A DNA stretch of 62,102 nucleotides, the filler included, from Deltaproteobacteria bacterium (GTDB lineage Bacteria; JAUYMQ01): the NCBI GenBank assembly GCA_030698575.1. It is 10 parts of 10 records of this genome, joined end to end, with 100 filler letters (N's around TTAATTAATTAA, not from the genome) between each part and the next. Parts side by side here need not be neighbours in the genome. Positions count along the whole stretch, not along the records: positions 25,549 to 32,995 come from JAUYMQ010000201.1; 9 more parts are not named here. One strand, written 5' to 3'. Position numbers and translations under genes: made by a program. Below are positions 5,539 to 35,867 of the stretch, piece after piece (position 1 is the stretch's first letter; each line of letters starts with the position of its first letter). A model generated the notes under the pieces. That model did not search any database. It saw only the letters and a program-made list of their open reading frames with translations, and had not been told where the DNA came from.

Positions 5539-5737
5539 GAAGTCTTCCCGCCGGACTCTCCGGCCCCCTCNNNNNNNNNNNNNNNNNNNNNNNNNNNNNN
5601 NNNNNNNNNNNNNNTTAATTAATTAANNNNNNNNNNNNNNNNNNNNNNNNNNNNNNNNNNNNNNNNNNNNTTCGAGACCCTTCCCAACCTCCTCTGGGTC
5701 TAGCAGATCGAGCTCTGAAAGGACCGCCAGGGCCTGG

Positions 5738-10133: not shown

Positions 10134-10404
10134 GGTGCGGGGATTATAGGGGCGAGGGGGGAACCTCACAATCGGGCCGGAGCGGGGCGGCGCGGCCGGC
10201 GCGTTGACATCCGCGCGCCGGGGTGGCATGGTCGAGCCGGAGAATCCCATCCGGCCGGCCGGAGCAGTGTCTGCGCATGCGATCCATACTGACCCGACCC
10301 CTCANNNNNNNNNNNNNNNNNNNNNNNNNNNNNNNNNNNNNNNNNNNNTTAATTAATTAANNNNNNNNNNNNNNNNNNNNNNNNNNNNNNNNNNNNNNNN
10401 NNNN

Positions 10405-13823: not shown

Positions 13824-14464
13824 GGGGATCCCCCCGCCTGGGCCTTGCGATCCTCACAACGGGCGCAAAATTCGCGGCGGCCGTCCGGGTAGTCCTGAAA
13901 TTCGTGGCCGCACGGGCACTGGATCCACTGCGAGGGGATCGGCCTCACGGTCTCGAGTCCCTTCGCCCGGGCCCGCCCATCCGTGCGCCGCTTTGCGGGT
14001 CCGGGGTCTTGGCCGCGCGGTGAGCGCGGGGCTGCTTTTTGATCAGTAGTGCCAGGAACAGTGCCAGGAGGCGGCGTTTCGTCGGCGTGCGGCTGGCGTT
14101 GCGTCGGCGGGTAGCCTTGTTTCTGTTGCCAATTTCGGACGCCAACGCGCCACTCACCGCCCGGTAGTTTCTTGATACTTACTCCGAGATCGGCCCGACT
14201 TCGGCCCGACTTCGGCCCGAGCTCGGCGAGAGCTCGGCGCAAGAGCCGGTCGGCGGCCGCGACGGTGCGCTTGCCGGCGATGGTCATGCGGGCGGTCGGG
14301 TGCAACAAGATCGCGCCGCCGTCCAGGTGTGCCTTGCGAGCGTTCAACTCGGCGTAGAGCGCGACCACGACGCCCAGGACCTCGCGGTCGTGGATCTCGT
14401 GGACTTCGTACTCATACAGGCGAAAATATCGGCGATGATCCGAAGGGCGGGCGGGCCGGCTCAC
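13820..14464 (-). CDS. Putative replication initiator-like protein with a C-terminal Zn finger
   Basis: GTG start after GGGAGA; YFRLYE N-terminus, VRNWQQKQ, internal 11-bp direct repeats, C-terminal CPCG...CARC; lies just after AlpA. Confidence 0.5.
   Translation of the reverse strand: MSRPARPSDHRRYFRLYEYEVHEIHDREVLGVVVALYAELNARKAHLDGGAILLHPTARMTIAGKRTVAAADRLLRRALAELGPKSGRSRADLGVSIKKLPGGEWRVGVRNWQQKQGYPPTQRQPHADETPPPGTVPGTTDQKAAPRSPRGQDPGPAKRRTDGRARAKGLETVRPIPSQWIQCPCGHEFQDYPDGRREFCARCEDRKAQAGGSP
14190..14243. repeat. Five 11-bp direct repeats (iteron-like)
   Basis: TCGGCCCGACT TCGGCCCGACT TCGGCCCGAGC TCGGCGAGAGC TCGGCGCAAG. Confidence 0.7.
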
Positions 14465-15274: not shown

Positions 15275-15376
15275 ANNNNNNNNNNNNNNNNNNNNNNNNN
15301 NNNNNNNNNNNNNNNNNNNTTAATTAATTAANNNNNNNNNNNNNNNNNNNNNNNNNNNNNNNNNNNNNNNNNNNNA

Positions 15377-25448: not shown

Positions 25449-25548
25449 NNNNNNNNNNNNNNNNNNNNNNNNNNNNNNNNNNNNNNNNNNNNTTAATTAA
25501 TTAANNNNNNNNNNNNNNNNNNNNNNNNNNNNNNNNNNNNNNNNNNNN

Positions 25549-26887
25549 GCTCCGGCGCGCGCGCGGCCGTCTGCGGCCAGACGCGCACGCGGCCGACCCG
25601 GCGGCCGTCCATTTCCAGGATCTCGAATGTCGCGCCCTGGACGGTGACGCGATCGCCCACCTTGGGCAGCCGGCCGAGCCGGCCGAACAGCATTCCGCCG
25701 ATGGTCGTGTAATCGGCGTCATCGAGGGGCAGCTTCAACGCGCGGCTGACGTCGGCGACGTCGGTGCCGCCGGAGAAGATCGGCGGGCCGCCTGATGCCG
25801 CCCCCGCCGCGGATCCGGGGGCGCTCGCCTGATCGTATTCGTCGTAGATCGGCCCCACGATTTCCTCGAGCAGGTCCTCCATCGTTACGAGCCCCGCAGT
25901 GCCGCCGAACTCGTCGAGCACGATGGCGAGGTGGACCTTTTGCCGTTTCATGTCGGCCAGCACGTCTTCGACTTCGCGGGTGCCGGGAACAAAGAAGGCC
26001 GGCCGGGCGATGTCGCGCACGGCGAAGTCTTTGCCTTCCCGCAGTCCGCGCAGCACGTCTTTCGCGTGCACGGTGCCGATGACGTCGTCGATGGATTCGC
26101 CGATCACGGGGTAGCGGGAGCGCCCGGCGGCGGCGATTTCGTCCGCCGCCTGCGCCAGGCCGTGGTCTCCCGACAGCGCGATGATGTCGGTGCGCGGCGT
26201 CATCACCTCGCGCGCGTTCTTCTCGCTGAACTCGAAGACGCCTTCGAGCAGCCGCGCGTCGCCGGCGCGCAGGCCGCCGGTGCTGCGGCTCTGCTCGACG
26301 AGCATACGCAGCTCCTCGGGCGAGTGCACGCGCTCCCGCTCGGTTTGCGGGCGGGCCCCGAACAGCCGGAGCAGGGCGTTGGCCGTGCCGTTGAGGGCCC
26401 AGATGAACGGATTGGTGGCGGCGGTGAAGAGCATGAGCGGCGGCGCCACCCACCGGCTGGTCGATTCGGGATGCAGCAGCGCCACCGCCTTGGGGGCGAG
26501 CTCGCCGAGCACGATGTGCAGGAACGTGATCGCGGTGAACGCGAGGGCGGACGCCACGCTGTGGGTCGCGACCGCGTCGAAGGGCGCGGGGAACCCGGCA
26601 AAGAGGTGCTCGATCGTCGTCGCGACCGCCGGCTCGCCGATCCAGCCGAGCCCCAGGCTCGCCAGCGTGATGCCGAGCTGGGTGCCTGAGATGTAGCGGT
26701 CGAGCGACAGGAGCGCCTTCCGGACGACGACGGCCTTGCGGTCGCCGCGCCGCGCCCAGGCATCGATGCGCGTGCGCCGCGACGCGACGAGCGCGAACTC
26801 CGCGGCGACGAAGAACGCATTCGCCGCCACGAGCAGCAAGACGGCGCCGAGACGCAGCGCGATGGCGCCAAACGAAGGTTCAGTCAT
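25549..26887 (-). CDS. Hemolysin-like CNNM/CBS/CorC domain protein (stop just beyond the contig edge)
   Basis: NAFFVAAEFALV, QLGITLASLGLGWIGEP, GELAPK, VMTPR, DEFGGTAGLVTMEDLLEEIVG. Confidence 0.92.
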
Positions 26888-26913
26888 CCGGTCCCGAAAC
26901 AACCTATTATGTT

Positions 26914-27807
26914 TTGACGGTGCTGCCAGTCGAAGCGCATTGCACGTATCGCGCGCCCATCAATCCCGAGACGCGGCGCCGCCTCACCCTCGCCCTCGCC
27001 ATCACCGCCGTCGTCATGGTCGTCGAGGTCGTGGGCGGGTGGCTCGCCGGCTCGCTCGCCCTCCTCGCCGACGCCGGCCACATGCTCGCGGACGCCGCGG
27101 CGCTGGCGCTCGCCCTGCTCGCGGCGCGCATCGCGCAGCGCCCCGCGACGGCCGAGCGCTCGTTCGGGTTCCTGCGGATCGAGATTCTCGCCGCGTTGAT
27201 CAACGGCGCCCTCCTGATCGCGATCGCCGGGGCTATCGGCCTCGAGGCCGTCCAGCGGCTGCGCGTGCCCACGACGGTGGACGCCCCGCTGCTGCTGGGC
27301 GTGGCCGGCGTGGGGCTGGTGGCGAACGTCGCTGCCGTGGCCGTCCTGCATCGGGGACATCAACATTCGCTCAACCAGCGCGGGGCGTACCTCCACGTCG
27401 TGAATGACCTGCTGGGCTCGGTCGGCGCGCTGGTGGCGGGAACCGTCATCCTGCTTACGGGGTGGACGGCGGCGGATGCGCTGATCTCCCTCTGCATCGG
27501 AGTGCTGGTGCTGATCAGCGCATGGCGCCTGGTTCGGGAGAGCGCGGAGGTCCTGCTGGAGGCGGCGCCCGCCCACATCGCACTCCACGACGTCCATGAC
27601 CGCATCGCGTCGGTTCCCGGCGTGGACTCGGTCCACGACTTGCATCTGTGGACCGTCACGAGCGGGGTGGTCGCGATGAGCGGTCATCTGGTGGTCAAAA
27701 ACCCCGCTGACAACCAGCCCATATTGGAAGAGGTGCAGGGGCGGATGCGGGCGCTGGGGATCGCGCACGTGACCGTCCAGGTGGAGCGCGAGCCGACCTG
27801 TACCTAG
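26914..27807 (+). CDS. Cation diffusion facilitator (CzcD/ZitB-like) transporter
   Basis: SLALLADAGHMLAD, GAYLHVVNDLLGS, VHDLHLW, HVTVQVE. Start could be TTG 26914 or GTG 26920. Confidence 0.92.
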   Translation: MTVLPVEAHCTYRAPINPETRRRLTLALAITAVVMVVEVVGGWLAGSLALLADAGHMLADAAALALALLAARIAQRPATAERSFGFLRIEILAALINGALLIAIAGAIGLEAVQRLRVPTTVDAPLLLGVAGVGLVANVAAVAVLHRGHQHSLNQRGAYLHVVNDLLGSVGALVAGTVILLTGWTAADALISLCIGVLVLISAWRLVRESAEVLLEAAPAHIALHDVHDRIASVPGVDSVHDLHLWTVTSGVVAMSGHLVVKNPADNQPILEEVQGRMRALGIAHVTVQVEREPTCT

Positions 27808-27906
27808 GGGGCGCGGCCTGCCGCCCCCCCCCCCCGCCGCCCTTGTTTGGGTCCAGCCACCCATTTATACTGCCGCCCTCATTTACGGGACCAAGGACTT
27901 AAGTCA

Positions 27907-29757
27907 GTGAAGATCCGCAACATCGCTATCATCGCCCACGTCGACCACGGCAAGACGACGCTCGTGGATCAGATGCTGCGCCAGGCCGGCGTGTTCCGCG
28001 CCAACCAGCAGGTCGCCGAGCGCGTCATGGATTCCCACCCCCTGGAGCGCGAGCGCGGCATCACGATCCTGGCGAAGAACACGTCGGTGCGCTGGGGTGA
28101 TACGAAGATCAACATCGTGGACACGCCGGGGCACGCCGACTTCGGGGGGGAAGTCGAGCGGATTCTGCGGATGGTGGACGGCTTCCTGCTGCTCGTCGAT
28201 GCCGCCGAGGGGCCGATGCCGCAGACGCGGTTCGTGGCGGGGAAGGCGTTGGCGCTCGGTCTCAAGCCGATCGTGCTGGTCAACAAGATCGACCGGCCCG
28301 ACGCCGAGCCGCTGCGGGTGCACGACGAAGTGCTCGAGCTGCTCATGGATCTCGATGCCTCGCACGAGCAGTTCAGCTGCCCCTTCCTCTATACGTCGAG
28401 CCGCCATGGCACGGCGACGGTGGAGATGGAGCACCCGGGCACGGCTTTGACGCCGCTCTTTGACGCGATTCTGGAGACGATCCCGCCGCCGCAAGCGAAC
28501 GCTTCGGGACCGTTCCAGATGCTGATCTCGACGCTCGACTATTCATCCTACCTGGGGCGGATCGGCATCGGCCGCATCGAGCGGGGCGAGGTGCACGTCG
28601 GCGACACGGTCGCCCTGCTGCCGATCGGCGAGCCGGGTCCGGTGGGTGAGGGGTCGTACGATCAGGCGCGGATCGTCAAGCTGTTCGCGTTCGAGGGGCT
28701 GGAGCGCGCCGAGCTCGAAAGCGCGCAGGCCGGCGAGATCGTCGCCATTGCCGGCATCGCCGGGGTCGAGATCGGCAAGACGGTGACGGCGCCGGACCAT
28801 CTCGACCGGCTGGCGGGCATCGCGGTGGAAGAGCCGACGATCTCGGTGGACGTCCTGGTGAACAACTCGCCACTCGCGGGCCGCGAAGGCAAGTTCGTGA
28901 CGGGCCGCCAGCTGCGGGAGCGGCTGTATCGGGAGCTCGAGCGCAACGTCGCGCTGCGGGTGGAGGACACCGATACGCCGTACGCCTTCACGGTGTCGGG
29001 CCGGGGCGAGCTGCACCTCGGCATCCTGATGGAGACGATGCGGCGGGAGGGCTACGAGTTCCAGGTGAGCCGGCCGCGGATCATTCCGCGCGAGGACGCC
29101 GAGGGGCGCCAGCTGGAGCCCTACGAGGAGCTGATGATCGATTGCCCCGAAGGGTACGTTGGGGTAGTCATGGAGAAGCTGGGGCCCCGGCGGGCGACGA
29201 TGCTCGACATGAAGAATCCGGGGTTGGGGATGGTGCGGATGCGCTTCAAGATTCCGGCACGGGGCCTGCTGGGCTACCGGTCGGAGTTCTTGACGGATAC
29301 GCGCGGCACGGGGATCATCCACCATCGCTTCTTCGAGTACGATCTGTGGGCCGGCCCGTTGGCGGGGCGGAACCGCGGGGTGCTGGTGGCGGATCGGGAA
29401 GGGGCCGTCGTGGCGTTCGCCCTCTTCAATCTGCAGGAGCGCGCCACGCTGTTCGTGCAGCCCGGCGATCCGGTGTACGAGGGTATGATTATCGGCGAGC
29501 ACGTGCGGGCGGGCGACCTCGACGTGAACGCCACGAAGGAAAAGAAGCTGACGAACATGCGCACGACGGCGTCGGACGAGATGATTATCTTGGAGCCGCC
29601 ACGCCAGGTGACCTTGGAGCTGGCGTTGGAGTACATCGAAGACGACGAGCTGATCGAAGTCACGCCGTCGTCGCTCCGGTTGCGGAAGCGTGTGTTGGGC
29701 GCGACCGGCCGCCGCAAGCTGGCCCGCAGCGAGAAGCGGGCCTCGATGGAGGAGTAG
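27907..29757 (+). CDS. typA: Translational GTPase TypA/BipA
   Basis: IRNIAIIAHVDHGKTT, ERERGITILAKN, DTPGHADFGGEVER, GRGELHL, KKLTNMR, EDDELIEVTP. Confidence 0.97.
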   Translation: MKIRNIAIIAHVDHGKTTLVDQMLRQAGVFRANQQVAERVMDSHPLERERGITILAKNTSVRWGDTKINIVDTPGHADFGGEVERILRMVDGFLLLVDAAEGPMPQTRFVAGKALALGLKPIVLVNKIDRPDAEPLRVHDEVLELLMDLDASHEQFSCPFLYTSSRHGTATVEMEHPGTALTPLFDAILETIPPPQANASGPFQMLISTLDYSSYLGRIGIGRIERGEVHVGDTVALLPIGEPGPVGEGSYDQARIVKLFAFEGLERAELESAQAGEIVAIAGIAGVEIGKTVTAPDHLDRLAGIAVEEPTISVDVLVNNSPLAGREGKFVTGRQLRERLYRELERNVALRVEDTDTPYAFTVSGRGELHLGILMETMRREGYEFQVSRPRIIPREDAEGRQLEPYEELMIDCPEGYVGVVMEKLGPRRATMLDMKNPGLGMVRMRFKIPARGLLGYRSEFLTDTRGTGIIHHRFFEYDLWAGPLAGRNRGVLVADREGAVVAFALFNLQERATLFVQPGDPVYEGMIIGEHVRAGDLDVNATKEKKLTNMRTTASDEMIILEPPRQVTLELALEYIEDDELIEVTPSSLRLRKRVLGATGRRKLARSEKRASMEE

Positions 29758-29800
29758 GGCAGTCAGGGCCGTTCCCAGGCAACCCGAGCCGGAGGTGGCA

Positions 29801-30046
29801 ATGCAGGCCCGCGACACGTCGGCCCACTGGTCGCTCAAGCGGAGGAGCGACGAGGTCGACGAGGAGTTCGGAGAATTCGAAGAGGACAAGGAGCTCGACG
29901 AAGACTTCGATGACGAGCTGGACGAGGACGAGCTCGACGACGAGGATCTCGAGGACGACGACTACGACGATCTCGACGACGAGTTCGACGAGGGGGATGA
30001 CGACGAGTTCCGGCCGAAGAAGGGGCCGAAGCGCGAGTGGGAGTGA
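29801..30046 (+). CDS. Small, extremely acidic protein
   Basis: GGAGGTGG RBS; 81 aa with a long D/E tract punctuated by L/F and a basic tail RPKKGPKREWE. Confidence 0.6.
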   Translation: MQARDTSAHWSLKRRSDEVDEEFGEFEEDKELDEDFDDELDEDELDDEDLEDDDYDDLDDEFDEGDDDEFRPKKGPKREWE

Positions 30047-30053
30047 AGACGGC

Positions 30054-30117
<64 letters not shown>

Positions 30118-30127
<10 letters not shown>

Positions 30128-30264
30128 TTGCAGCGAACTGCGAGCCCCGCTTGGTGTTACGGCACTGGGCGGGGTTCCTGCTTTGGTGGAATTGGAGCCG
30201 TGGTGTCGATTCGTGGTGTCGATTCGGCTAGATCCGAGTGAATCCCGTCAGCCGCTTCCGGCTC
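30118..30264 (+). repeat. att region plus integrase 3' end, copy 1 of a 147-bp direct repeat
   Basis: Aligns without gaps to 32849-32995 (14 mismatches by hand count); contains a tandem 13-mer CGTGGTGTCGATT x2 (30199-30224) resembling arm-type sites. Confidence 0.88.
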
Positions 30265-31394
30265 GCCAGCGCCTCGCGCATGGTCCCCTCGTCGGCCCGC
30301 TGGTAGCACTTGAGCACGGTCTGCGGCTCCTTCCACCCGCCCAGGTAGCACAGGTCCTTCAGCGGCGTGTGCTTCAACTCCGTCGCGAACTTCCGGCGGA
30401 GACTATGCCACCCGAGACCCTTCACACGTGGTACGCCGGCCGACGCTTCCGCCCGCTGCCACCAATCGCGCACCAGATGCCGCGAGCAGGGCTCGGCGGG
30501 GTTCCCCGGGGAGGGGAAGACCCATGCATCGCCGATGGATTGCTGCTCCTGGCGTGCGCGCTCGAGCGCGTCCAGCGCCGCCTCGGTGACGACCGTCTCG
30601 TGTTCAAAACCGATCTTGTCGTTCTCGGCACGCCACCGAATCTTCCCGTGCTCGAAGTCCATGTCCGACCACCGCAGCCTTCGAATCGACCCGATCCGAT
30701 GGCCGGTTTCATGGGCCAGGATGAGCGCCAGCTTGAACAGCGGGCTGACGTGCCCGCCGATCGCGAGCATGGCTCGATACTGCTCGTCGGTGACGATGGG
30801 CCGACTGGGGTTTGACTCCTTCGGGAAGGGAAACCCTTTCAGGGGGTTCCGCTCGAGCAGGTATCTGCCCGTCCCGTCCCCTGCCATCGTCGCCCAATTG
30901 AGCACGGCGTGCAGGAATTTCAGGTTCTGAGTGATCACGCGGTCCCCGACCGGCTTTCCGTGGACGCGACCTGCACGTCCGTCGCTTCCCGCCCGTCGCC
31001 GCCGCATGAAGGCATCCCAGTCGCGGCGGTTGAGCGTCGCCACCTGGCGGTCCGGTCCGAACAATTCGAGGAACAAGTTCGCCGCGCGGCGATCGTGGCT
31101 CTGGCTGCTCACACTCTTCTGCGGGGTCACCTCACGCAGGTAGTTGTCAAAGAGCGTTTGCAGCTGTAGCGCGGCGCCGAGCGGCGGCTCCTGCCGCCGC
31201 AGCGCCATGGCCACTTCCTCGGCCTTCGCCTTCGCGGCTTCGCGGTCGCGGTGCTGCAGGGCGATCCGCTTGCGCCTGCCGTCTTCATACAGCTCGAGGA
31301 AGATGCGACCGGTTTGCGGGTGCTCGAACGCGCGCACCCGGTTCCGGCCGCGCTCGCCGGTGGAGAAACTCCACCGCGTGGTTACGTGGGTCAT
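30228..31394 (-). CDS. Tyrosine recombinase/integrase
   Basis: TGHRIGSI (R), ENDKIG (K), WHSLRR (HxxR), LGGW, KCYQ (Y); faces the tRNA 3' end. Confidence 0.93.
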   Translation of the reverse strand: MTHVTTRWSFSTGERGRNRVRAFEHPQTGRIFLELYEDGRRKRIALQHRDREAAKAKAEEVAMALRRQEPPLGAALQLQTLFDNYLREVTPQKSVSSQSHDRRAANLFLELFGPDRQVATLNRRDWDAFMRRRRAGSDGRAGRVHGKPVGDRVITQNLKFLHAVLNWATMAGDGTGRYLLERNPLKGFPFPKESNPSRPIVTDEQYRAMLAIGGHVSPLFKLALILAHETGHRIGSIRRLRWSDMDFEHGKIRWRAENDKIGFEHETVVTEAALDALERARQEQQSIGDAWVFPSPGNPAEPCSRHLVRDWWQRAEASAGVPRVKGLGWHSLRRKFATELKHTPLKDLCYLGGWKEPQTVLKCYQRADEGTMREALASRKRLTGFTRI

Positions 31395-31783
31395 CGTGGA
31401 TCTCCTGGTTTGGAGGTCACGACAGCCCGCGCGATCTGCCCGGGTGTTGCACCTACAAGCTTGACGGTTGTTCCCGACCGCCGCAACCCGGTTGCCTTCC
31501 GCGGAAGGTCCGCGCGGCGAATCTTCGGGGCGCTCGGGCGGCCCACATTGGCAATTATTCCGCTTCGCACCAGGCGCCCCAGGTGTCCCGCCGAGTAGCC
31601 CGATTCTCGGGCCGCCTCGGTGAGTGTGAGGGCGTCATGCTCCTGGGACCGGAAGAGCGCCTCGGCGTCGGCCAGCACTTCGTCCAGCAGCTTGGCCGGA
31701 TCGACCAAGGCGCCGAGCCGTTTCAGTCGCTCGCATTCGGCTCGCCAGCGGGACAGGAACTCTTGCCGGGTCTCGACGGTCAC
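31391..31783 (-). CDS. HTH protein, excisionase-like
   Basis: LTLTEAARESGYSAGHLGRLVRSGIIAN...PKIRRADL; ATGA overlap with the integrase. Confidence 0.75.
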   Translation of the reverse strand: MTVETRQEFLSRWRAECERLKRLGALVDPAKLLDEVLADAEALFRSQEHDALTLTEAARESGYSAGHLGRLVRSGIIANVGRPSAPKIRRADLPRKATGLRRSGTTVKLVGATPGQIARAVVTSKPGDPR

Positions 31784-31867
31784 TCTCGCTTGTGCCTTCC
31801 AACCCGCCCCAAAGCACGAAGCCGCGCGAATCGCGCGGCTGGAACTGCGGGGCCGTATCGCAGGGCC

Positions 31868-32218
31868 CTAAAGGCCGTGCTGCATATAGGTCGCGTAGTC
31901 GAAGTCATCGTGGTCTTCTTCGGGCCAGTGGAGCGCCAGCGCGTTGAGGGCCCCGATCGCCTGGTCGATCACGTGCGCATCGACCGCGGCATCCTCGAAC
32001 ACCTGCACGAGCTCGTCCCGGCTCCGGAGCAGGCGGAGCTGCAGCCACCGCGCGTGTTCCGGGAGATCCAGCGCCTGCCCGTGCTCCTTCGGGAGCATCA
32101 GTTGCCGAGCCGCTTCGGCCAGGGTGATGTCGGCCCGGGCCGCCCGGCGGCGGATGGCACGAGCCACGTCGAGCGGGAGACGGAGGAGCTCAGAAGAGCC
32201 GAGCCGGGGTTTGCGCAT
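31868..32218 (-). CDS. Putative ribbon-helix-helix-like regulator
   Basis: SSELLRLPLDVARAIRRRAARADITLAEAARQLM has a beta-helix-helix pattern; preceded by a sigma70-like promoter. Confidence 0.5.
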   Translation of the reverse strand: MRKPRLGSSELLRLPLDVARAIRRRAARADITLAEAARQLMLPKEHGQALDLPEHARWLQLRLLRSRDELVQVFEDAAVDAHVIDQAIGALNALALHWPEEDHDDFDYATYMQHGL

Positions 32219-32224
32219 GGAAGG

Positions 32225-32254
32225 ATGTTAACATTTAGCTACTCCAAAAGTCAA
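32225..32254 (-). promoter_or_regulatory. Sigma70-like promoter, probably giving a leaderless transcript
   Basis: TTGACT-N18-TAACAT with extended TG; the -10 box ends 6 nt before ATG 32218; palindrome ATGTTAACAT overlaps the -10. Confidence 0.55.
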
Positions 32255-32324
32255 GCTACAATATGACAAATTGTTCCCATTGAGGGGGCAGACTGGTCCC
32301 TGGCTGTGGCACTGGAGAGTGCTT

Positions 32325-32827
32325 CTCCACCGGCCTCTCCACCGGGCTCTGCACCTAGATCTCCACCGAGATCTCCACCAGGGTTTCCGACCCGGGGTTA
32401 AGAGAGTGATGCGGTTCTCTACCGCGTGCGAGCGACCACCAGCGCAACTTGGGTGGAGCGTCCTGGTTCGATCCTGTCTGCGTTCCCACCTGCGTTCCTA
32501 CGTGGTGTCCCATTCGCGCGTCTCGCCTGGGAAACCAACCTGAAACCCACGCTGAACGCCGTACTGCAGGCCGTACTGAGCGGCGTACTGAACGCCTTTG
32601 AACGCCGTACCCGCCGTTCGGGGCGTCGTTCGGCGGATCGTTCGGGCACCCGTTCGGCTACCTGTTCGGCGCCCCGTTCGGCAAAAAGCCCCGGTAGACG
32701 TTCCGGTGGACGTCCCGGTACACGTCCCGGTGAGGTGGGAAACACCGGAGGAAAGTGCAAAGGAAACAACGTAGGAAACGGATTGGAACCGCCGGAGGAA
32801 CCGGTGGAGGAACCCGCGGAGGAATCG
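32325..32827. repeat. Array of seven different 12-bp-period tandem repeat blocks
   Basis: CTCCACC-N5 x5; CTGCGTTCC-N3 x2-3; CTGAACGCCGTA-like x5; CGTTCGG-N5 x6; CCCGGTNNACGT-like x4; GGAAA-N7 x4; GAACCNNNGGAG x3-4. Confidence 0.85.
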
Positions 32828-32848
32828 CCTACCCCCGGCCGGCCTCCT

Positions 32849-32995
32849 CCCGGGCCCATTGTTTGGAAGAGCGAGCCTCGCTTGGTGCTACGGCACTGGG
32901 CGGGGTTCCTGTTCTGTTGGAGTTGGAGCCGTGGTGTCGATTCGTGGTGTCGATTCGGCTAGATCCGAGTGAATCCCGTCAGCCGTTTCCGGCTC
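32849..32995 (+). repeat. att region plus 3' end of a second, related integrase (copy 2)
   Basis: About 90% identical to 30118-30264, including the integrase stop codon and C-terminal RKRLTGFTRI; the contig ends here. Confidence 0.88.
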
Positions 32996-33095
32996 NNNNN
33001 NNNNNNNNNNNNNNNNNNNNNNNNNNNNNNNNNNNNNNNTTAATTAATTAANNNNNNNNNNNNNNNNNNNNNNNNNNNNNNNNNNNNNNNNNNNN

Positions 33096-34410
33096 CGGTC
33101 ACGCTCCGGCGGAAGTCGAGGTCGTTCGCGACGGCCTCAATGCGGTCGTACATCGTGAGGAGATTGCCGGCGATCGTGATCTCCTCGACAGGATAGGCCA
33201 GCTCGCCGTTCTCGATCCAGAAGCCGGCCACCCCGCGCGAATAGTCGCCCGTCACCGGGTTCACGCCGAAGCCGATCAGCTCGGTGACGTAAAGCCCCGC
33301 CTTGACCGACCGGATCAGATCCTCCGGAGTTTCGGTTCCGGGCTCGAGGAAGAGGTTGTGCGAACCGACGCTCGGCGAGCTCGAGATGCCCCGCTGCGCG
33401 TTTCCGGTCGAGCGGAGGCCGAGCTTGCGGGCGCTGTAGGTGTCCATCAGCCAGGTCCGGAGCACGCCTTTGTCGACGACGACGTTGCGCCGCACGGGCA
33501 GCCCCTCCGCGTCGAAGGGGCTCGAGCCGAGCGCGCCCGGAAGAGTGCCGTCGTCGACGACCGTCAGGCGTTCGGGGCCGATCTTCTTACCCACCTTGTC
33601 GATGAGGAAGCTGACGCCCTTGTACACGCTCGTTCCCGAGACGGCCTCTCCCAGGTGATCGATGAGCGAAGAGGCGGTGTCGGCGTCGAATATCACGGGA
33701 AGCTTTGCGGTTCGGATCTTCCGCGCCCCCAGGCGGCGGAGCGCCCGCTCGCCGGCAATGCGTCCGAGCTTCTCGGAATCCTCGAGCCGGGAGACCTTTC
33801 GCGCTGCCGTGAAGTTGTCGGCGCGTTGCATGGCGCCGTTCTCCTCGGCAATCGGCGCCACGTAAAGGAAGAACTCGGTGCCCGCGACCTCGCCCACGAA
33901 GCCGTGGGAGTTGGCGAGCACCCTGCGCGACTCGCGCCCCTCCCAGTCGGCGGCGTCCATGTTCGTGACGCGGGGATCCACGGCCCGTGCCGCACCTTCG
34001 GCCCGGCGGGCGCGCTCGATCTGATCCTCGACCGAGAGCGATGCGCCTTCGGGATCGTGCAGATCGAGATCCGGCAGCGCTCCGTGGGCAAGCTCGGCGG
34101 GGTCGGGAAGGGATGCGTGGGGATCCTCGGCGGTCACGCGCGCCAGCGAGCAGGTGTCCTCGACGAGCTGATCCAGCGAGGCCTTCGAGAAGTCGCTGGT
34201 GCTCGTGTTCGCGGAGCGGTGCCCGAAGAACACCCGCAGGCCCAGCGCCCGCTCGCTCGCGGTCTTCAGCTTGTCGACCGAGCCCAGGTAGATGGACGCG
34301 CTCAGCGCCCGCTCCACCACCGCCATGACGTCGGCGGCGGTGGCGCCCCGCTTGCCCGCCGCCTCGATCACCCGGGTGGCGGCTTCTTGAAGATCGAGTT
34401 CGCTCTTCAT
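33096..34410 (-). CDS. pmbA: TldE/PmbA family protein (3' end truncated)
   Basis: SSPFDAEG, STGNA, GVNPVTGDYSRG, YPVEEITIAGNL; directly downstream of tldD. Confidence 0.93.
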
Positions 34411-35867
34411 CACTGGGTGCCTCCCACGGTAATGCCGTCGATGCGTATCGTGGGCAGGCCCACGCCCACCGGCACGCTCTGGCCGTCCTTGCCGCAGGTG
34501 CCGACCCCCTCGTCGAGCCCGAGATCGTTCCCCACGCGCGATACCCGCGTGAGCACGTCGGGGCCGTTGCCGATGAGAGTCGCGTCCTTCACCGGGCGAG
34601 TCACCTTGCCGTCTTCGATGAGATAAGCCTCGCTCGCGCTGAAGACGAACTTCCCGTTCGTGATGTCCACCTGGCCGCCGCCGAAGTTCACGGCGTAAAG
34701 CCCGCGCTTGACGCTCCGGATGATGTCGGCCGGGTCGTCCTCCCCGGCGAGCATGAAGGTGTTGGTCATGCGCGGCATGGGAATGTGCGCGTAGCTTTCG
34801 CGGCGGCCGTTGCCGGTGGGCTCCATTCCCATGAGCCGGGCGTTGAGCTTGTCCTGCATGAAGTTGCGGAGGATTCCCTTCTCGATGAGCACCGATCGCT
34901 GGGTGGGCGTGCCCTCGTCGTCGACATTGAGCGAGCCGCGCCGATCGGCGATGGTGCCGTCGTCGACGACCGTGCAGATGTCGCTTGCCACCCGCTGGCC
35001 CAGCTTGCCGGCGAAGGCGCTGGTCTTTTTCCGATTGAAGTCCCCCTCGAGACCGTGGCCGATGGCCTCGTGGAGCAGAATGCCCGGCCAGCCCGGCCCC
35101 AGCACGACGTCCATCAGACCGGCCGGCGCATCGACGGCGTCGAGGCCGAGGATCGCCTGCCGCGCTGCCTCGCGCACGAAGTGCTCCCAGCGCGGCCGAC
35201 CGTCACGATCGGCGCCGAGCCACTCGAAACCGAGGCGCCCGCCGCCCCCGTACACCCCGTAGCGCCGCTTCTCTCCGTCCTCCGCGATGCAGACCACGTT
35301 GAGGCGCAGAAGCGGCTGCACATCGGCCACGTAGGTTCCGTCGGAGCCGACCATCATGACGAGCTTCTGCTCGCTTCCCACTGTCGCGATGACGTTCTTG
35401 ATCCGCGGGTCGCAGGCCCGCGCCAGCTTGTCGATGCGATCGAGCAGTTCGACCTTCTCGGTAACCGGGACGTCGGTGGCGGGCTTTGGCACCTGATAGA
35501 GATTCCGGGCCGGAGCGTTGGGCGTGCCGACGGAAACGGCCGCGCTCTCGGAGGCGCCCTCGGCGATCGCGCGCGCGGTCTTCGCGGCAATCTGGAGGTT
35601 CTGCACCGTGATTTCGTCGGAGAAGCCGTACCCTGTCTTCTCGCCCGCCTGCGCGCGCACACCCGCTCCCTGATTGATGGCGCGGGTGGCTTTCTTCACC
35701 AGCCCTTCCTCGAGCTGGATCGATTCGTTCACCCGGTACTCGAAGTACACGTCGGCATAGTCGATGGAGCGCCCCAGCGCGCCGCCGAGGCCTTTCTGGA
35801 GGGCTCCGTCGTCGAGTCCGAACTTGTCGAAGAAGAACTTTTCCGGCCTGGCGGGCGAATCTGCCAT
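34410..35867 (-). CDS. tldD: Metalloprotease TldD
   Basis: GPGWPGILLHEAIGHGLEGDFNRK, TGNGRRESY, PRMTNT, GTCGKDGQSVPVGVG. Confidence 0.96.
   Translation of the reverse strand: MADSPARPEKFFFDKFGLDDGALQKGLGGALGRSIDYADVYFEYRVNESIQLEEGLVKKATRAINQGAGVRAQAGEKTGYGFSDEITVQNLQIAAKTARAIAEGASESAAVSVGTPNAPARNLYQVPKPATDVPVTEKVELLDRIDKLARACDPRIKNVIATVGSEQKLVMMVGSDGTYVADVQPLLRLNVVCIAEDGEKRRYGVYGGGGRLGFEWLGADRDGRPRWEHFVREAARQAILGLDAVDAPAGLMDVVLGPGWPGILLHEAIGHGLEGDFNRKKTSAFAGKLGQRVASDICTVVDDGTIADRRGSLNVDDEGTPTQRSVLIEKGILRNFMQDKLNARLMGMEPTGNGRRESYAHIPMPRMTNTFMLAGEDDPADIIRSVKRGLYAVNFGGGQVDITNGKFVFSASEAYLIEDGKVTRPVKDATLIGNGPDVLTRVSRVGNDLGLDEGVGTCGKDGQSVPVGVGLPTIRIDGITVGGTQ

Follow-up and report, generated by a model that had tools for sequence, protein, structure and literature searches.

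The stretch of DNA analyzed here (the window) is 62 kb long and consists of contigs of a metagenome-assembled genome (MAG) chained by N44-TTAATTAATTAA-N44 linkers; the locus of interest lies on the contig at positions 25549-32995. This contig harbors a 2.7-kb mobile element at a tRNA-Ile gene of a Gemmatimonadota bacterium, with about 500 bp of non-coding 12-bp repeat blocks, hereafter the array, at its end. The genes and features follow one another in the order typA, an Asp/Glu-rich open reading frame (ORF), tRNA-Ile(GAT), integrase (minus strand), hth130, orf116, a divergent region and the repeat region (Table 1). An earlier interpretation made from the sequence alone (the sequence-only reading) had described the array as the only cargo of a mini integrative element, and this holds apart from the integrase and two small genes: the first element at this site, ~2.7 kb in length (~30118 to ~32858), contains three genes and the repeat region.

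The strongest 12-bp periodicity of the whole window is located at 32301-32848, where the identity between positions 12 nt apart (lag-12 identity) reaches 0.507, compared with 0.268 (standard deviation 0.019, maximum 0.33) in 2000 mononucleotide shuffles and with 0.397 for the best of 1102 other 548-nt segments of the 62 kb, which is a coding Asp/Glu-rich gene. Tandem Repeats Finder called period-12 arrays at 32324-32379, 32552-32596, 32614-32682, 32690-32731 and 32785-32829, and stacking the sequence as 12-mers makes all of the seven blocks visible; their cores differ, the period is 12 bp in 7/7 of them, and together they amount to ~32 units of seven kinds over ~500 bp. The succession of 12-bp-period blocks with a switching consensus, as claimed from the sequence alone, is therefore confirmed by the repeat finder, by the 12-mer stack and by lag-12 identity. 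Phased exact 6-mers, defined as at least three copies at a single spacing of 9-15 bp, occur in only two places elsewhere in the whole window. The only other strong phased short-repeat run of the window, at 14190-14220, has an 11-bp period and three units of TCGGCCCGA.

Block 4 is the best case for a constrained core: GTTCGG is exact in 6/6 units and CGTTCGG in five of the six, so that six consecutive columns are free of mismatches and the spacers change in almost every unit (p=0.0002). A contiguous core run is also found in block 6 (p=0.02), and none of the seven blocks shows a period-3 mismatch pattern. The earlier claim that conserved bases form contiguous cores rather than codon positions thus stands for these two blocks and with respect to the period-3 pattern; it did not carry over to the other five blocks, in which the core/spacer pattern is non-significant when each is tested singly. 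Cores that seemed to be shared among blocks by eye, namely CGTTC in blocks 2-5 and CCGGTGGAG in blocks 1, 5 and 7, were rejected, as a circular consensus comparison returned p<=0.05 in 3/55 pairs, which is about the chance expectation; the consensuses are not demonstrably related to each other, in agreement with the sequence-only reading. Block 7 matches block 6 at 8/12 positions (p=0.04) and is also an inverted partial match of block 1, and the third unit of block 2 resembles, by eye, the arm-type 14-mer described below (GTGGTGTCCCATTCG). The relation of blocks 6 and 7 and the register shared by blocks 4 and 5 may be read as weak hints.

The array extends from ~60 bp past a conserved promoter-like region as far as the att core. 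Within the divergent region, a promoter scan called a promoter-like site on the minus strand (32254-32225), and TTAGCT-16-TACAAT on the plus strand (32237-32264), noticed by eye and not called by the scan, points into the array. The sequence TGGCAC-N6-GTGCT at 32308-32324, directly before block 1, is sigma-54 -24/-12-like by eye, with a spacing one base too long, and may be of interest given the sigma-54 activators beside the arrays of relatives. The att-core-like CCCATTG at 32280-32286 was considered as a sign that the array is a separate att-flanked mini-unit, and was dismissed because it aligns with the conserved leader of the related locus L027 (CCCCAAG).

Table 1. Features of the tRNA-Ile element and its repeat blocks (window positions; L027 is a related locus).
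Feature	Position	Strand	Basis or content
tRNA-Ile (GAT), integration target	30054..30127	+	ARAGORN; Rfam tRNA, 71 bits
Direct-repeat copy 1	30118..30264		90.5% identical over 147 bp to 32849-32995
Two tandem GTGGTGTCGATTCG units, 13 bp apart	30200..30226	+	Between tRNA and integrase stop codon
Tyrosine integrase, 388 aa	30228..31394	-	PF00589, E=4e-18; phrog_1 integrase, E=1e-40
hth130, Xis/BldC/MerR-like winged helix	31391..31783	-	4-bp overlap with integrase start
orf116, conserved small protein	31868..32218	-	Coding score +0.47 bits/codon
Divergent promoter/leader region (A+T-richer at 32219-32300)	32219..32310		Homologous to L027
Block 1	32325..32384		CTCCACC-N5, 5 units; Tandem Repeats Finder, 12-mer stack
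Block 2 (weak)	32478..32513		CTGCGTTCC-N3, 2 good units and 1 poor; 12-mer stack
Block 3	32541..32612		TGAACGCCGTAC-like, 4-5 units; Tandem Repeats Finder, 12-mer stack
Block 4	32613..32684		6 units, constant core then variable spacer; Tandem Repeats Finder, 12-mer stack
Block 5	32685..32732		CGTCCCGGTR-like, 4 units; Tandem Repeats Finder, 12-mer stack
Block 6	32733..32780		GGAAAC-N6, 4 units, ~48% G+C; 12-mer stack
Block 7	32781..32828		GGAGGAACC-N3, 4 units; Tandem Repeats Finder, 12-mer stack
Direct-repeat copy 2	32849..32995		attR / second attL core, hairpin 32873-32908, tandem 14-mers 32931-32957, integrase end

To assess the coding potential of the array, codon log-odds were derived from 19 long genes located in the window. 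The six frames of 32301-32848 score between -0.31 and -0.47 bits/codon, compared with +0.37 for the integrase and +0.47 for orf116, and real genes never fall under -0.09 per 540 nt. Two long ORFs cross the array, one of 178 aa on the plus strand (ORF178) and one of 146 aa on the minus strand (ORF146), blocks 2-7 being open in both; their G+C content at third codon positions (GC3) is 0.61, as against 0.85-0.89 in genes. Single blocks do score positively in some frame, for example block 4 with +0.43 in the frame reading xFGx, but the positive frame and strand shift between blocks and several such frames contain stops. No homologs of ORF178 were found among 5.8 billion proteins, and, unlike orf116, the two ORFs do not appear among recorded called proteins. 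In practice, neither of the long ORFs that span the array is a gene.

ORF146 has a single homolog, P0053, which is a 199-aa ORF carried by an ENA contig of 3590 bp (E=3e-10 in a search of 1.84 billion representatives). Its exact stretches FAERGAEQVAER, PERSAERRPER and RRNAGG, the last of which is the translation of 32485-32502 in block 2, correspond to one minus frame of the window, and RSAWVSGWFPRR corresponds to another. Since a single ORF of P0053 thus matches two frames of the window, frame-changing indels are present in the window and the homology is at the DNA level. In block 4, all six Glu codons of the frame shared with P0053 are GAA, where GAG would be expected given the GC3 of the genes. 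Taken with the negative codon scores and the low GC3, the two-frame match agrees with the earlier proposal of DNA-level information, in that the information resides in DNA (or RNA) and not in protein, and no intact frame combining the codon usage of the genome with homologs kept in that frame was found for the tetrapeptide-repeat protein that would have spoken against it. P0053 retains block 4 (23/24 residues, in exact stretches of 12 and 11 separated by a single mismatch) together with portions of blocks 2 and 7, and other stretches of tetrapeptide period replace blocks 6 and 5 (SSxV and GxST instead of xFPx and PGRx). Its residues match 39 times at lag 4 and 31 times at the double, lag 8, compared with 5-14 at lags 1-3 and 5-7. 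By these alignments, blocks are swapped as modules between the window and P0053, and the modular variation for which the sequence-only reading had suggested searching is thereby seen as block-wise replacement in one relative.

Loci with related integrases (26 + 56) lie mostly beside tRNA-Ile and come almost entirely from Gemmatimonadota MAGs; a comparison of the array DNA and its translations with the 82 related loci gave low-complexity noise only. Arrays were compared across the 30 related loci that extend 1.2 kb or more upstream of the integrase, and 435 kb of loci were scanned for phased 6-mers. Short-period arrays (11 or 12 bp), whose presence in related elements was another point raised from the sequence alone, were detected in 4/30 loci (L027, L016, L005 and L002), and phased exact 6-mers are otherwise rare in the 435 kb. 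The arrays of L027, L016 and L005 occupy the same place as that of the window, just past the small regulator genes beside the integrase and near the start position of the window array, and in L027 and L016 the array follows a divergent intergenic region. That of L002, with ~15 units of 12 bp and the core ATCYSC, stands just inside the right end of its element, beside sequences resembling the arm-type 14-mer.

The closest of these relatives, L027, has an integrase 95% identical to that of the window and aligns with 26995-32269 at 82% identity (BLAST), the global alignment trailing to ~32305. At the same spot it carries CGTTCTAGCGG x5.5 (11 bp) and GATTTCCTC x2-3, followed by a ribosome-binding site with a 116-aa ORF and then by genes for a sigma-54-type AAA+ protein and a truncated secretin. 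In L016 (integrase 71% identical), (G/A)TTCCACGG is repeated 5-6 times at 11 bp after a divergent promoter region and precedes a PspF-like activator (Sigma54_activat + HTH_8) and then type II secretion genes, while L005 has an 11-bp GCACCAT array. An arrangement of array, receiver-less PspF-like sigma-54 activator and type II secretion/pilus genes (GspE, GspG, secretin) is thus seen in both L016:928-3943 and L027:1760-3471; in L027 the activator is truncated and abuts the truncated secretin ORF. A possible shared core between the inverted L027 array and block 3 (score 31, shuffle maximum 27) was discounted, because arrays inflate such scores.

The ends of the element were examined through the two direct-repeat copies. 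Copy 1 starts with the last 10 nt of tRNA-Ile and includes the attL core (GGCCCATTG, by eye), a hairpin at 30141-30176, the two tandem 14-mers and the 3' end of the integrase; its hairpin is a copy of the terminator-like hairpin in copy 2, and CC(A/G)GGCCCATTG is common to both copies at 11/12 nt. A PF00589 integrase beside a tRNA gene whose 3' end is repeated at the far end is what is expected of a tRNA-targeting tyrosine-integrase element. Positions 32959-32995 are the final 37 nt of a second integrase gene, in which 11 codons specify the same residues with one synonymous change. As copy 2 runs via the hairpin and the 14-mers into this integrase end, it represents the start of a second tandem element and not a plain att site; this second element is cut by the contig end at 32995. 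Logan contig record 8 spans 32423-32946, and record 7 of the same run holds a second integrase allele at a depth of 6.1, compared with ~10 for the first element. The exact GTGGTGTCGATTCG pair is repeated in copy 2, and pairs with 0-3 mismatches occur at the same place in 9/13 relatives (L001, L002, L003, L004, L016, L019, L027, L031 and L033) and in L028; from this conservation, the 14-mer pairs are probably arm-type integrase sites. Far-end att copies were not found in relatives within the fetched flanks, except in L012 and L024.

The array region is independently reproduced by Logan contigs, which bears on the doubt, voiced with the sequence-only reading, whether sequence data back the assembly. 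Over 30225-32451 and 32423-32946, the Logan assembly of the run that is probably the source shows zero differences, another run of the same study matches 32294-32454 exactly, and a run of another study covers 32448-32564 with 5 differences. Divergence of the last is about equal in the array stretch (5/117) and in the coding left module (33/1053), so the array is not hypervariable at short range. Runs that matched a small share of the sequence probably contain just the conserved att and integrase end, and nothing on habitat follows from them. Among the Logan contigs, no joint marking a circle or an empty site was listed, a negative that carries no information on excision.

Of the two small proteins encoded beside the integrase, hth130 is present in 26 related loci and matches HTH_17 and AbiEi_4 below the Pfam cut-offs. 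Its AlphaFold2 model consists of an N-terminal helical hairpin followed by a strand-helix-helix-wing core, with a pLDDT of 94-95 over residues 50-90. The best Foldseek row is BldC bound to DNA (prob 0.99, rmsd 2.1 A over 46 columns), and further rows include MerR-type domains, Pukovnik Xis, P2 Cox, lambda Xis and Tn916 Xis; the fits are good, at an rmsd of ~2 A for 44-46 aligned columns, but the small size of the domain leaves the E-values weak (0.1-1.4). On the strength of this modeled Xis-like fold, hth130 is a candidate recombination directionality factor (RDF). The orf116 family comprises 52 homologs of ~119 aa with the invariant pattern RLP.DV..A.R.RAA..D.T...AAR.L. No match to orf116 was obtained in Pfam, PHROGs or Foldseek (AlphaFold2 pLDDT 71), the 52 homologs are without a Pfam domain, and the ribbon-helix-helix label given to it from sequence alone was not confirmed, the N-terminal pattern resembling that fold by eye only. 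A search for the family in 5 genomes behind the loci and in 401 sampled genomes of the phylum returned no match, an empty answer that shows nothing.

Several observations concern the surroundings of the element. The Asp/Glu-rich ORF between typA and tRNA-Ile (29690-30046, 118 aa) has a 12-bp (tetrapeptide) periodicity of its own, and the order typA, acidic ORF, tRNA-Ile is found again in many related loci. The next contig carries pmbA/tldD-like genes at 33040-35867, which are unrelated to the element. Linkers are located at 5571-5670, 10305-10404, 15276-15375, 25449-25548 and 32996-33095, with four more in the window, and features near them are cut by contig ends.

Considering the location of the array between a promoter-like region and an att core, where sites of this kind would be expected, its comparable period and the constrained core of block 4, we favor, as a tentative first choice that could well be wrong, the interpretation that the array consists of phased binding repeats for an oligomerizing recombination or regulatory protein and is turned over by slippage and block replacement. 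In this model, the 12-bp blocks would form the long right arm and the transcribed leader of a small tRNA-Ile integrative element. With repeats about one helical turn apart, an oligomerizing DNA-binding protein could assemble on them head to tail, the obvious candidate being the element's own hth130, perhaps together with the arm-binding domain of the integrase or with orf116. Assembled in this way, the protein would control how active the rightward promoter is and would bend the arm for excision. Slippage, local homogenization, inversion and whole-block replacement may drive a rapid turnover of blocks, as a result of which neighboring blocks and close relatives would share the period and not the core. 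As in known RDF arrays, a small winged-helix RDF-like gene, hth130, adjoins the integrase. Units are spaced at 12 bp in the window and L002 and at 11 bp in the three other relatives with arrays (L016, L027 and L005); described RDF sites are 10-11 bp apart.

A number of results weigh against this interpretation. The same core is not found wherever the same protein acts: between the window and L027 the recognition region of hth130 is nearly identical and orf116 is 87% identical, yet the arrays have no core in common, and the window array shares k-mers with those of L027, L016, L005 and L002 no more than expected from background (p=0.12 to 1.0). No array was found in 26/30 related loci, with detectors that miss degenerate arrays. 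The 12-bp period departs from the 10-11 bp of described RDF sites, the core/spacer pattern is significant in only two of the blocks, and the blocks themselves share consensus at the chance level. Furthermore, we know of no described recombination arm or operator that approaches ~32 units of seven kinds over 500 bp, which is far above any of them. The objection from differing cores is softened by RdfS and BldC, which are reported to bind without a strict consensus (PMC11963761). A shared period with different consensuses is explained equally well by a neutral minisatellite with local homogenization.

Neutral minisatellite drift is the main rival, and we consider it somewhat doubtful. It holds that a functionless stretch at the variable end of the element arose by slippage from one 12-bp array and was locally homogenized into consensus domains. 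Besides the common period with different cores, it would account for cores that are not kept between close relatives, for the replacement of whole blocks in P0053 and for the absence of the array, by the detectors used, from 26/30 relatives; neighboring units of block 1 are near-identical even in their spacers, CGTTC stands in the same register in blocks 4 and 5, and the 8/12 match of blocks 6 and 7 points in the same direction. Uniform neutral decay would not, however, yield a block 4 core intact in six units amid randomized spacers, and drift is difficult to reconcile with a period held at 11-12 bp in at least 12 independent blocks of five elements, with the recurrence of arrays at one place beside a conserved promoter region, or with a stretch (32448-32564) that diverges in the other-study run no more than the coding module. 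An action of the array as RNA was judged improbable. A ~600-nt non-coding transcript would run from the rightward promoter, and its repeats would bind or titrate an RNA-binding protein or fold on themselves, through pairing of block 1 to blocks 7 and 5 and of block 2 to block 6. The by-eye promoter pointing into the array and the hairpin at 32873-32908 closing it fit such a transcript, as do nested inverted matches (76% over 21 nt between blocks 1 and 7, 88% over 16 nt between blocks 2 and 6), GGA-rich units 12 nt apart in blocks 6-7 and a plus-strand folding z-score of -2.2, with 0/100 shuffles folding as well. This z-score is nevertheless modest and similar on the other strand (-2.1; 5/100 shuffles as good), the plus-strand promoter was not called by the scan, the array stretch was found in no RNA run, and an Rfam search returned the tRNA as its sole match, with no family at E<=1 for the array.

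A gene for a tetrapeptide-repeat protein, real or recently decayed, in which 12 bp would be four codons, appears most unlikely. The periods of the window, L002 and P0053 are all divisible by three, blocks 2-7 can be read through in two open frames, single blocks score positively, and P0053 is open over 199 codons with its strong lag-4 periodicity; the positive frames vary by block and strand and several hold stops, the long open frames have negative coding scores and a low GC3, ORF178 lacks a homolog and ORF146 has one that requires two frame changes, neither is a called protein, and the 11-bp arrays of relatives cannot be coding repeats. The sequence-only reading had gone further and proposed that each block mimics the iterons of a different phage or plasmid, so that an element lacking a replication gene hijacks helper initiators or acts as a decoy; extended to other binding arrays of helpers, such as packaging sites, this is again a very slim prospect. 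Its premise is borne out, in that the element encodes only integrase, hth130 and orf116, with no Rep family match in Pfam or PHROGs and no replication or transfer gene of its own, and no rep gene was seen among the scanned proteins of relatives (the L005 neighbors being outside the scan). Modular exchange of blocks, and cores that differ between blocks and relatives while the element proteins stay constant, would likewise suit binders supplied in trans. The searches themselves gave the proposal no support: BLAST of the array found no match in 50,697 phage records and one trivial 45-bp match, inside a gene, in 72,556 plasmid records, sets that include no phage or plasmid of this host group. A pattern scan of IMG/VR with the cores of blocks 1 and 4 placed 72/80 and 20/34 loci, respectively, among the matches listed, in open frames of at least 150 aa from unrelated organisms, that is, mostly in long coding frames of unrelated G+C content. 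Classical iterons are 17-22 bp long at ~22-bp spacing, compared with the 12-bp period here, no AT-rich unwinding region adjoins the blocks (the lowest block has 48% G+C), and the equivalent arrays of L027 and L016 lie in leaders of ordinary genes (the 116-aa ORF and the PspF-like sigma-54 activator). Slightly less remote, and still quite unlikely, is a broader version in which the only cargo of a lineage of Gemmatimonadota mini-elements is a set of transcribed, exchangeable 12-bp modules that would each dock a different DNA- or RNA-binding protein provided in trans, whether from helper phages, from co-resident elements such as the tandem neighbor, or from the host, making the element a multi-specific decoy or hitch-hiker.

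In integrative elements, it is known that a few phased binding repeats can be present in the arms of attachment sites and in switch regions; here, in a poorly studied phylum, such a region has grown to ~32 units of seven kinds, whose blocks are reshuffled one by one among relatives. If these blocks serve as binding platforms, as the favored interpretation of phased protein-binding repeats supposes, they would offer a natural series on how an Xis/BldC-type protein reads low-consensus DNA and on how its sites evolve. If they are neutral, they would provide a clean bacterial example of a domain-structured minisatellite.

Among the closest known systems are the binding arrays of Xis, Cox, Apl, RdfS and BldC. 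Apl binds cooperatively to seven direct repeats between pR and pL and to five at attP, 10-11 bp apart (PMC7498355), and RdfS and BldC form head-to-tail filaments with one protomer per DNA turn (PMC11963761). In such arrays, short-core direct repeats are set roughly one turn of the helix from each other, in attP arms and promoter regions alike, and are bound cooperatively by a small winged-helix protein encoded beside the integrase, whose specificity can be loose (PMC7498355, PMC11963761); the window element encodes a candidate protein of this kind, hth130. They differ in having 3-7 units of one type at 10-11 bp, compared with ~32 units, seven core types and 12 bp in the window, and the cores of the window are not common to a close relative with the same protein.

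Partition arrays (ParR-parC, TubR-tubC, StbA-stbS) resemble the window in placing direct-repeat blocks upstream of the gene for a small DNA-binding protein, overlapping its promoter; tubC is split into blocks with two different iterons, and one protein spreads along the DNA (PMC6009700). The window element differs in being integrative and not a plasmid and in having seven core types, and no ParA, ParM or TubZ-type motor gene was found in the element. Iterons of replication origins likewise comprise several phased direct repeats with a conserved core; here, by contrast, the unit is 12 bp, rep gene and AT-rich region are lacking, and the phage and plasmid collections searched gave no sequence match beyond the trivial 45-bp one. 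Finally, the tandem accretion of integrase modules at tRNA genes corresponds to the two related modules found head to tail at tRNA-Ile, with their conserved arm repeats, the difference being that the arm of one module has here grown into a 500-bp multi-block array.

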